A DNA stretch of 64,000 nt from Escherichia coli (GTDB taxonomy: Bacteria > Pseudomonadota > Gammaproteobacteria > Enterobacterales > Enterobacteriaceae). Below are positions 51,301 through 54,300 of this stretch, piece after piece. Made by a program: the position numbers. Positions within the stretch are counted from its first letter, which is position 1; the number at the start of each line of letters is the position of its first letter. The stretch lies in assembly GCF_003018115.1 (NCBI RefSeq), contig NZ_CP027458.1, one strand, 5' to 3'.

Positions 51301-54300
51301 GTGGATGTCAGTTTAATCGTGCCATCCTGACCATTCAGACTCACAGCCTCCTTACCATCAGTCCCGTTAACTTTGATGCTGCCGGGCGCCTTATCCCCCA
51401 CAGTCAGGTCATTATTCAGGGATATTTTTAACTCTTTATCTCCATTGGCAGTGATTGCTGTGGTGGTGATATTGCTATCCCCGGATACTTTAATCGCCTG
51501 TCCAAGAGACTGTTTCACTTCCTGTCCCTTAGAGTCTTTCAGTGCGAAACCTGCACCTTGCATACTGGTGGATACACCATCAATTGCAGTTTTCAGGTCT
51601 GCAACACTGGCGGCATTTTTCATCTCTTTATCAGCATTCGTTAATGTCGAAAGAGCCTTACCTTCCAGTCCACTTGCCACGCCATTGATAACAACACCGC
51701 CGTTTTGCCCAGCAGCATTACCGCCTGACAATGTCAGCTTATGATCTTCGGATGAGAGCATTACACTTCCGTTATTTCCTTTTCCGTTCAGCTGAACACT
51801 GCTGAATGACGGAGTATCAACAACAGAAAACGTAAAGTTACCGTTATTTTGTTTCACGCTGAGATTTTTACCAGCTTTCAAAGTAACGGTCTCTCCGGGA
51901 TTAATTAACTCTTCCTGACCTCCCTCAAACCTGCCACCATTTTCACTGTCAGCTTTAATTTTCCAGCCAGACTGGTTTATGGCATCAGCAATGTTTTTCG
52001 CTGTAACAAGTTTATGCTCATCACCATTGTTTACTGTAATCTTCCCGTTACCATCATTTACAGGAAATGAAGCTATCTCTGCTGAAACTTCCAGTTTATT
52101 TCCATTAACGACACTGGTTTGTATTGGGCCTTTGCCTGCGATTTCGACATCGTCACCAAGATTCTTCGTCAGCGTCTTACCATCTCCATCTTTAATATTG
52201 ATAGCATCTTTTTTTATTTCATTTTTCAGAGTTGTTCCATCAATCGTCACTCCATTTTTGTCTACAGTAACATCTATATTACCGCTGCCTTTGACTGTTA
52301 CAGAGTTATCACTACCCCCATTCCCACTATTAATGGTAGCATTACCTCCTTTTTCATCCTTTAGCACCCACGCTGGATTTATGGCATCAAGGTCATCTTT
52401 CAAACGTTTAGCTATCACATATAGCTGACTCCCGTTGATAGCATCCGTACTTTGTTCTGAAATACTCCCAGCACCAACATTAACGATCTGGCGCTCATAT
52501 CCTTCTGAACCAACAGATACAACGGAAGAGGGAGTGCTTCCTGCAAACCCAGAATATGTAATTACCGACCCTTTATTGGAAACGATCTCAGCAGAGTTTA
52601 TGTGTTGAGCTTTCTTATCATTAGATAAGCTCCCCAAAGCAACATTATTCTTATCTATTGATACTTTCGCATTTTGTCCTAACGCAACCCCTCCAACCTG
52701 TAGAGCTTGGGCATTAAAACCTATGGCTGTAGAATTATTCTGAGTTGCTCTTGAAGCACTACCGACAGACAACGCATTTTCTGATTGTGCCAAGGCATTG
52801 AACCCTACAGCTGTTGACATATTTCCATTTGCCTCAGCTGTAGCCCCCAAAGCATTCGCAGAGACTCCCGAAGCTTTACTTATAGCCCCTAGACTTACAG
52901 ACAAGTCACCTTCCGCTATACCTCTGGAGCCAATAACAATGCTACCATGCCCTCTAGCCTCTGATGGGGAATAGTCATCAGGAATAACTTTTTCTCCATA
53001 TTTATGTCCATGTAATATTTTCAGGTCATCACCACCAATAGCAATAGCCCCCCAACCGCTGGCTAAGGTATCACCACCAATAGCAATAGACTGCTCTCTT
53101 TTCGCTTCAGCTTTTGGCCCAATAGCAATAGCCTCACCGGTTTTAACGTCCTCCATGTTTTCACCGGCCTTAGCACTTGTACCAATAGCAATAGAATTAT
53201 GCCCCCTTGCCTCAGGAGATAGATGGTCAAAATTAATTTTATTACCAGAATCAACTATAGTTACATTTTTAGTTGTTCCGATCTCAATGCTCTTCCAATT
53301 ATCACCATAAACCCCTTTGGAGTATTCTGTCTCATCAACCTCAATCTTTTCGTTATTTTGCGCAACACTGGCAAGAGGAACAAGAGTTGGGCTTAACGAT
53401 AGCAAAACAGCAAGACTAACCTTCGATCGATTAAAGCTCACTTTTACACTTCCTTTTTAATAGTATTTTTTTAATTGCAATACACATCTGTGAATTTTAC
53501 TTAAACGATTTAAACTTACGGTCAAGTACCCATTACTAATACTGTAATTTTCACAAATGAACTTTCTTGAACGCCCATCAACCAAATAAGCTCTCAAAGA
53601 CTCAAACACTTTTTTGCTACAGATTGGCGATATATCCATCAACAACAAGAAATGCTCCTCATCCATACAACCTGGAGTTAAAAGCGCACTCCCAAGAGCA
53701 GATCCGTTTTTTGTTTCGGAATAATGCGAACAGCTCATATCCCCCTCCTTTTTTAATAGGATAAATCCCTTCCCTCCCCCATAACAACCTTTTCACCGAA
53801 CAAAACAAACAAAACAAAACACCACGAACAACAAAAAAAACAAAAAAAACACCACAAAATAAAACAACAACAAAGAAAACAACCAAAAAAAGCAGCAGCA
53901 ACCATTGTATATCACAAACAAAAAAATAAACAAAAAATAACAAAAATCAAAAAACAACAATAATGTCTAAACCATGAGGTGAAAAATGAGGCAGCAGAAC
54001 CAATTGCATGCCATAATTATTATTCTGGGACAAAAACCCTCAATGCCACATGTATACGAAAACGCTCATCTATCCATAGTTAAAGTTATTTAATATTCTC
54101 CCATTAATTCACAAACTAAACACTTAAGAAAAAATCACCATTAAGCTTCACATGTTTTTATATGTTTTTTAGGATGCCATTGTAGCTAAATTACCCCAAA
54201 AAAACAGGAAGATTAGCCAGTCATAAAATAAATCCAATTAACAGGTAAAACAGTTGTTCCTAAACTTTTAAATTTACGTAGTTATATAGCCTATTCAGCC

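Follow-up and report, generated by a model that had tools for sequence, protein, structure and literature searches.

What does a tract of some 200 bp, written almost entirely in A and C, do upstream of the first gene of an adhesin operon? The question is raised by a window of 64,000 nucleotides (the whole stretch of DNA analysed here) from Escherichia coli contig NZ_CP027458.1, RefSeq assembly GCF_003018115.1. In this window a gene for a PapB-family regulator heads an operon that encodes a YadA-like trimeric autotransporter adhesin of the Sab type. A first-pass annotation had flagged the interval 53765-53965, had called such composition rare, and had suggested a slippage-prone phase-variation tract, a nucleoid-protein or H-DNA-forming element, or a spacer of variable length. 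We compared the region among 30 sab loci taken from complete plasmids, draft genomes and sequencing-run assemblies, which form about 9 allele groups. We tentatively propose, with a probability of about 0.4, that the tract is untranscribed upstream regulatory DNA, which would serve a PapB-like autoregulator and nucleoid proteins as an oriented platform of T runs and as a ruler.

The unusual composition of the tract is real. The flagged interval contains 61% A, 25% C, 4% G and 10% T; its left ~30 bp (53765-53793) lie outside the A/C tract and are C/T-rich, being complementary to the G-rich spacer of a promoter-like element. The cleanest core, of 167 bp, holds 114 A, 37 C, 9 T and 7 G (90% A+C) and is built of A runs of 3-8 interrupted mostly by a single C. 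With a 200-bp sliding window, A+C peaks at 0.87 over the tract, against a mean of 0.515 (standard deviation 0.05) over the 64 kb. The top score of an A/C segment is 87 and that of the other two-letter alphabets is at most 29, which makes the tract by far the most extreme two-letter stretch in these 64 kb. Tandem Repeats Finder returned only degenerate periods of 5, 9 and ~31 bp (69-84% match), and the tract is therefore no clean microsatellite.

We then asked what is kept among the sab alleles, whose regulators are 65-88% identical to that of the window. An A/C tract of 100-212 bp (85-91% A+C) was present in 30 of 30 loci. Alignment of the upstream regions resolved three blocks: a conserved proximal block, a centre of ~120 bp that is not conserved, and a conserved distal block of ~60 bp. 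Between groups, the ungapped identity of the centre was 0.42-0.58, where 0.475 is expected from composition, and its gapped identity was 0.66 versus 0.63 for a shuffled partner. Since the fourfold-degenerate sites of the adjacent gene are themselves far diverged (0.476 identical between groups, about 0.9 substitutions per site), the scrambled centre looks as neutral sequence should. The composition of the gene strand was kept across the same groups (T 0.64, G 0.21, A 0.07, C 0.07), and local tandem units differ from allele to allele (5, 7, 8, 9, 11-14, 17 and ~30 bp). Local duplications of ~30-32 bp, roughly three helical turns, were seen in the tracts of the window (53799-53890), L006 and L019, which belong to three groups that are otherwise unalignable there.

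The distal block carries two motifs (Table 1). Motif 2, of which the family form is CAGAATAATAATAC, was found in 12 alleles; in 11 of them it sits 40-41 bp upstream of motif 1, and in L005 the distance is 37 bp. From motif 1 inward, identity in successive 15-nt bins was 0.90, 0.77, 0.72 and 0.72, these first ~60 nt being the best conserved. Between motif 1 and the regulator ATG (53738, minus strand), C is depleted on the sense strand (2%, 7% and 5%, versus 11-16% on either side), and the depletion includes the proximal 58 nt, which are not T-rich. An outgroup operon, described below, keeps motif 1 and has a moderately T-rich spacer about 33 bp longer.

Length is kept as well. Counted from where motif 1 ends, the ATG lies at 215 bp in one locus, 216 bp in 11, 217 bp in eight, 218 bp in five, 219 bp in two and 220 bp in two, so that 29 of the 30 loci fall within 215-220 bp; the single outlier, at 229 bp, is longer by 11 bp, or about one helical turn. 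At the level of single runs, isolates separated by only 0-2 substitutions in 237 nt have T8 runs that are unequal by 1-2 T. Complete genomes show these differences, and so do draft and SRA-run assemblies (assumed to be mostly short-read). Part of the differences may be assembly error, since sab is frameshifted in a long-read record that has four indels in the tract. Indel events stand to substitutions as 16 to 62 (ratio 0.26). At the fourfold-site distance, a crude free random walk predicts a standard deviation of about 7 bp in the length difference between two alleles; the observed root-mean-square difference was 2.1 bp without the 229-bp allele and 6.0 bp with it. By our own rough binomial estimate, eight of nine groups would lie within 5 bp under the free walk with p of about 0.002.

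From these alignments we conclude that the tract is prone to slippage, as had been suggested, and yet that its total length is probably held. A comparison of isolates had been called for, and it gave a divided answer, with differences of 1-2 T in single runs and a nearly invariant overall length. A freely length-variable spacer does not agree with 29 of 30 loci staying within 6 bp while the sequence is scrambled between lineages. Nor does a slippage phase switch fit: the variable T runs sit between the two promoter-like elements P2 and P1, none lies inside a promoter spacer or a reading frame where a change of 1 bp would switch expression, and the P1 spacer (18 bp) and P2 spacer (16 bp) are the same in all alleles. 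Run-length differences between isolates are thus the one feature of contingency loci that was found here; the placement of a switch and a wide range of lengths were not.

P1, proximal, and P2, distal, are both sigma-70-like. In all alleles P1 has the form TTGnnA, 18 bp, TATnnT, followed by AAAAAGGAGG and ATG, with TTG and TAT invariant; within the sab clade P2 reads TTGATT, 16 bp, TAT(A/T)TT and lies inside the conserved distal end of the tract. A promoter scan by simple position-weight scoring placed both at conserved positions in the sab alleles. In the outgroup operon P1 is the position of the top promoter-like site (-50/-21), with no convincing counterpart of P2, for which reason we favour P1 as the probable main promoter. 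In the pap locus, used as a control with the same scoring, the top site falls just downstream of GATC-prox, where we take the papBA promoter to lie. With P1 as the main promoter, the tract would be placed at about -45 to -205. It had been described as part of the promoter or leader of the regulator gene; it does belong to the control region of the gene that heads the adhesin operon, but P1 would leave most of it upstream of the start and not in a leader.

What might bind such DNA is suggested by the relatives of the regulator. Oligomers of PapB and FocB bind to AT-rich DNA (PMC5956150). The PapB homologue TosR, whose gene opens an operon for a non-fimbrial adhesin, likewise binds AT-rich DNA and works together with H-NS and Lrp (PMC10392849, PMC12388093). 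A-tracts generally improve H-NS binding (PMC4466236). In our proposal the gene strand would offer an array of T runs in the same orientation, parted mostly by a single G, that would span about -45 to -205 from the expected P1 start with the two conserved motifs on its far side. The array could be a register-free platform on which the oligomeric autoregulator, whose family binds AT-rich DNA and the minor groove, would polymerise, probably in competition with H-NS. The array would then resemble the T/G-rich PapB site-1 region of pap on a larger scale. In its other role it would be a ruler that holds the distal motifs at a fixed distance from P1. Slippage of T runs and small local duplications would turn over the primary sequence and preserve the two-letter make-up, while selection would hold the total length. 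We infer the identity of the bound proteins by analogy, and the constancy of length suggests that it matters for expression.

The bias is not restricted to sab. In the pap locus, the 58 bp from papI to GATC-dist, presumably the position of PapB site 1, are T/G-rich on the papB strand (T35, G13, A5, C5), and the sab tract likewise is a T-rich stretch with G>C on the sense strand of the regulator, upstream of its promoter. Upstream of the PapB-family gene at eleven further loci, the best T/G segment measures 8-74 bp in ten, and T/G is the top-scoring two-letter alphabet in most of them, L030 and L034 being the exceptions. The eleventh, locus L013 of Salmonella enterica subsp. diarizonae (NZ_VXJV01000010.1, about 1069-1339), has a 271-bp T/G tract (T181, G47, A28, C15) upstream of a PapB-family gene that heads a fimbrial operon; this independent and longer case covers pap-like GATC boxes. 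Because the T/G bias recurs upstream of other PapB-family genes, the sab tract can be regarded as an extreme form of a family trait.

The likeness to PapB site 1, or the upstream activating region of the pap operon (Xia, Forsman, Jass and Uhlin 1998, cited in PMC12388093), has limits. Both systems have a PapB-family first gene, a T/G-rich sense stretch a few hundred bp upstream and a regulatory region of ~280-300 bp. The sab tract, however, is about 2.5 times longer and far purer, and it lacks the 9-bp period, the GATC boxes and the PapI partner of pap; moreover, its cargo is a trimeric autotransporter, whereas that of pap is chaperone-usher fimbriae. No GATC was found between 53702 and 54498; the sequence occurs in a few sab alleles and is not conserved, and GATC boxes are present in the pap control, L013, L014 and L032. 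When PapI was searched with tblastn, no match in the whole window had an E value below 0.5. A switch of the Pap type (Dam/Lrp/PapI) was accordingly rejected, the sab region having neither two GATC boxes about 102 bp apart nor a divergent co-regulator of the PapI/FaeA family. The small RNA PapR was also rejected as an analogue, because its gene does not lie in the pap island.

The tos operon of uropathogenic E. coli is similar to sab in that a PapB homologue comes first in a non-fimbrial adhesin operon; TosR autoregulates and binds AT-rich DNA, with H-NS and Lrp involved (PMC5956150, PMC10392849). It differs in its adhesin, which is of the RTX type, and a long two-letter tract is not described for tos in the papers cited. 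The published 28-nt TosR motif had no match in the sab control region. With 3 mismatches it occurs elsewhere in the window at 9773-9800, 11687-11714 and 42839-42866, all on the minus strand (0.02 expected by chance), and around these matches the window and plasmid pO104_H7 are not collinear. With the Lrp consensus YAGHAWATTWTDCTR from SELEX (systematic evolution of ligands by exponential enrichment), motifs 1 and 2 gave no match at up to 3 mismatches, and one 3-mismatch match lies inside the tract.

Repeat tracts in the promoter or leader of adhesin genes are known from Neisseria nadA (TAAA), Moraxella uspA2 (AGAT, in the leader) and Haemophilus hmw (7-bp repeats); nadA and uspA2 encode trimeric autotransporters, hmw does not. 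These loci share with sab a low-complexity DNA between upstream control sites and the adhesin gene, and a length polymorphism of the slippage type. In them, however, perfect repeats of widely varying copy number set expression, whereas the repeats of sab are degenerate, vary by ±1-2 bp and leave the length nearly constant. Upstream A-tracts, or UP elements, are reported to stimulate sigma-70 promoters through the alpha subunit of RNA polymerase (Aiyar, Gourse and Ross 1998). As in sab, these are A/T runs directly upstream of the -35; UP elements act within about -40 to -60, whereas the sab tract reaches about -205 and ends at conserved distal motifs.

Several observations weigh against the platform and ruler that we propose. 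A purely duplex-level role does not explain why the T runs are interrupted by G and not by C, nor does it account for the shortage of C along the entire distance between motif 1 and the ATG. The G interruptions would be explained by an oriented, head-to-tail protein array, but equally by selection at the RNA level or by amplification of TTTTG-type units. Xia et al. (1998) reportedly described T/A triplets every 9 bp in PapB site 1, and the pap control indeed showed a periodicity with z of 2.7-2.9 at 9-9.25 bp; in the sab tracts this 9-bp T-triplet period is absent (mean z -0.12 at 9 bp over 9 alleles). The hint of helical phasing in the T runs is weak and fails a null that preserves the runs (Fisher p 0.14). 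Point differences between close alleles (32 transitions versus 17 transversions) are mostly ordinary transitions that create A or C, so that composition is not protected site by site; no selection on composition at single sites was seen among these alleles. The argument from length weakens once the 229-bp allele is counted. Finally, the conserved position of P2 in sab alleles suggests that part of the tract may be transcribed.

This last point leads to a different role for the tract, in RNA. If P2 fires, the 5' untranslated region would be about 178 nt long, U/G-rich and poor in C and A, and the prediction that a transcript would be G/U-rich is consistent with the composition of the tract, the conserved P2 leaving room for such a transcript. 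Such an RNA would fold hardly at all, would lack AUG and stop codons and would offer Rho no C-rich loading site; an operon acquired horizontally could thus carry a long untranslated leader without being terminated early by Rho, and proteins that bind U-rich RNA, for example Hfq or S1, might attach to the leader. The P2 hexamers and their 16-bp spacer keep their position in sab alleles, within the best-conserved ~60 nt, the depletion of sense C is as in a Rho-evading leader, and the strand-specific bias (G>C, T>A) is what RNA-level selection should produce. However, hexamers resembling -10 and -35 arise easily in T-rich DNA, the outgroup has its best site at P1 and no convincing P2, and a role in RNA gives no reason for a length fixed to ±2 nt. 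The Rfam search of 53300-54900 gave no match with E up to 1 on either strand, and the predicted accessibility of the Shine-Dalgarno sequence at 25-42 °C was inconsistent among alleles (unpaired fraction 0.0-0.47 at 37 °C) and the same as in shuffled leaders. A transcribed leader is in our view possible, though doubtful. An RNA thermometer, or masking of the Shine-Dalgarno sequence by U runs, was rejected on the same accessibility data. We consider it unlikely that the tract is a decaying T/G simple repeat without function of its own, kept at low complexity by slippage and duplication and filling the space between the distal motifs and the promoter. The local tandem units proper to each allele and the ordinary substitution spectrum between close alleles speak for it, as does the sense-strand A+C of 14%, about half of the ~25% that we roughly estimate for neutral decay from a pure ancestor. 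It would leave unexplained a total length within 6 bp in 29 of 30 loci in spite of a scrambled register and indel-prone T runs, and the same strand bias upstream of other PapB-family genes, including the independent 271-bp tract; in addition, the spacing would still be functional, and so this explanation overlaps with the ruler part of our own.

Slippage could also act as a rheostat, changes of 1-2 bp in T8-T10 runs shifting the helical phase between the distal motifs and P1 and so giving heritable, reversible differences in Sab expression between lineages. The run differences between near-identical isolates and the gain of about one helical turn in the only long allele would agree with this. 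The lengths of 215-220 bp, however, are spread over about half a helical turn and show no evident optimum, promoter spacers and reading frames are free of such runs, slippage is much rarer in T8 runs than in the repeats of classical contingency loci, and some of the differences may be assembly errors; we find such tuning quite improbable. Curved DNA made of phased A-tracts might act alone, without a PapB-like protein, as a site of H-NS nucleation or thermosensing or as an extended UP-like element. T-run starts did peak at 10.25-10.5 bp in four of nine alleles (L003, L005, L007 and L008; z 2.4-4.5 with a simple shuffle null) and more weakly at 10.75 bp in L006 (z 1.6), with a best mean z of 1.8 at 10.25 bp, and A-tracts favour H-NS binding (PMC4466236). 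Against the run-length-preserving null, on the other hand, the phasing was not significant (Fisher p 0.14-0.15) and no better than in neighbouring bands; the dominant period of the window allele is 5 bp, which by our reasoning would cancel net curvature, and the frequent G/C interruptions lower the affinity of H-NS (PMC4466236). We consider curvature alone a very unlikely explanation. As for H-DNA, triplex or other non-B DNA, the strand asymmetry on which the suggestion was founded is all that favours it: the plus strand is 72% purine, a mixture of A (purine) and C (pyrimidine) that is no mirror repeat of the homopurine/homopyrimidine kind and no alternating CA repeat, and we give it next to no credit. 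Cruciforms are excluded, because a strand of A and C only, or of G and T only, cannot form hairpins.

A stricter form of the platform and ruler can be imagined, in which only base make-up, strand orientation and total length would be selected. A fixed number of head-to-tail PapB-family protomers would link the distal operator to the promoter, and T-run slippage would heritably fine-tune the helical phase. We hold this version to be rather improbable; if it holds, the information of this cis-regulatory element would lie elsewhere than in its sequence. More generally, our proposal would mean that the sequence of a bacterial control element may drift freely as long as its base composition, length and strand polarity are kept, a constraint that alignment-based searches for conserved non-coding elements would miss, and that regulators of the PapB family were taken into service by trimeric autotransporter operons that lack the Dam/Lrp/PapI switch. 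If the tract is a mere spacer or a decaying repeat, it is a curiosity.

The features of the control region and of the two genes that follow it are listed in Table 1.

Table 1. Elements of the regulator-sab control region and operon, in coordinates of the window
Feature	Position	Strand	Basis
PapB/FocB-family regulator gene, 93 aa, first in operon	53457..53738	-	Open reading frame; pO104_H7 annotation; PF03333 on homologues
Sab-type YadA-like trimeric autotransporter adhesin gene, 1437 aa	49128..53441	-	Open reading frame; YadA_stalk/anchor Pfam on homologues
Core A/C tract	53794..53960	none (T/G-rich on minus, the gene-sense strand)	Composition; present in all sab alleles examined
Shine-Dalgarno sequence AGGAGG, after A run	53744..53749	-	Conserved in all alleles
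P1, proximal sigma-70-like element: -35 TTGTTA (53782-53787), 18-bp spacer, -10 TATCCT (53758-53763)	53758..53787	-	Alignment, promoter scan
P2, distal sigma-70-like element: -35 TTGATT (53945-53950), 16-bp spacer, -10 TATTTT (53923-53928)	53923..53950	-	Alignment, promoter scan
Distal motif 1, GTTTAGACATTATTGTTG (family consensus GTTTAGATATTATTGTTG)	53955..53972	-	Alignment; length anchor; kept in outgroup operon
Distal motif 2, CAGAATAATAATTA	54014..54027	-	Alignment

Among 5426 complete E. coli genomes, the window matched only large virulence plasmids of Shiga-toxin-producing E. coli (63 genomes, every match on a plasmid). The region is 99.2% identical to pO104_H7 of strain RM9387; RefSeq annotates the regulator of this 99%-identical plasmid as PapB/FocB family, and Pfam PF03333 is precomputed for homologues. 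The counterpart of the adhesin gene on pO113 is annotated 'autotransporter adhesin Sab'. Sab is an adherence and biofilm factor of Shiga-toxin E. coli that are negative for the locus of enterocyte effacement. In the literature accessible to us, which does not include the original Sab paper, we found neither the tract nor the regulation of sab described.

On the minus strand the regulator gene is followed by sab, an OmpA-family gene and then ehxC. The other flank of the tract carries the L-lactate permease gene lldP and lactate utilisation genes of the lutABC type (54841-58593 and beyond), and in several related plasmids this lldP-lut flank is swapped for remnants of insertion sequences (IS). 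Because the tract is present in every sab allele whatever the flank, lldP-lut or IS debris, we assign it to the regulator-sab operon. In L002 (NZ_CP027375.1, 4722-6038) sab is cut to a 1317-nt 'hypothetical protein' beside a copy of IS600, with the regulator gene and the tract intact. No conserved open reading frame was found beyond the tract among the sab alleles.

In the window sab starts 15 bp downstream of the regulator gene. In contrast to the steady distance from motif 1 to the ATG, the spacer between the two genes varies widely in the same alleles: it is short in some (12-16 bp) and long in others (135-278 bp of ordinary composition). Tight coupling of the two genes is therefore not universal, and sab may have a separate promoter in the long-spacer alleles. 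Examples of these spacers are window 53442-53456, L004 5744-5963, L007 4829-4963, L010 2686-2963 and L019 3286-3451.

The outgroup operon was found in E. coli drafts (L015-L018). It combines a PapB-like regulator 52% identical to that of the window (L015 3001-3309) with a gene for a YadA-like protein of 1439 aa, and adjoins the gene of a SPATE (serine protease autotransporter of Enterobacteriaceae; Peptidase_S6) autotransporter. A search of genome contigs with the family alignment gave only 2 loci, and in a metagenome scan with the distal motif all matches were chance ones in unrelated AT-rich DNA. Among protein representatives, 154 of the PapB family were found. P0018 (2646 aa), P0025 (1348 aa, 10 stretches), P0124, P0126 and P0154 are very long proteins with short PapB-like stretches, which may be low-complexity matches.

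Stop codons are impossible in DNA made only of A and C or only of G and T, and the tract is consequently open in all frames. Open frames run across it in the window (53659-53943, 53753-53905 and 53793-53960, all on the minus strand) and across the tracts of L007 (5193-5444), L009 (3259-3522), L037 (410-754) and L041 (593-793), these on the plus strand. A genuine small protein in the tract was rejected, since such frames follow from the stop-free composition and are broken by indels between alleles. In practice RefSeq records attract spurious protein calls over the tract, and the 'hypothetical protein' entries that span it are most likely artefacts of composition.

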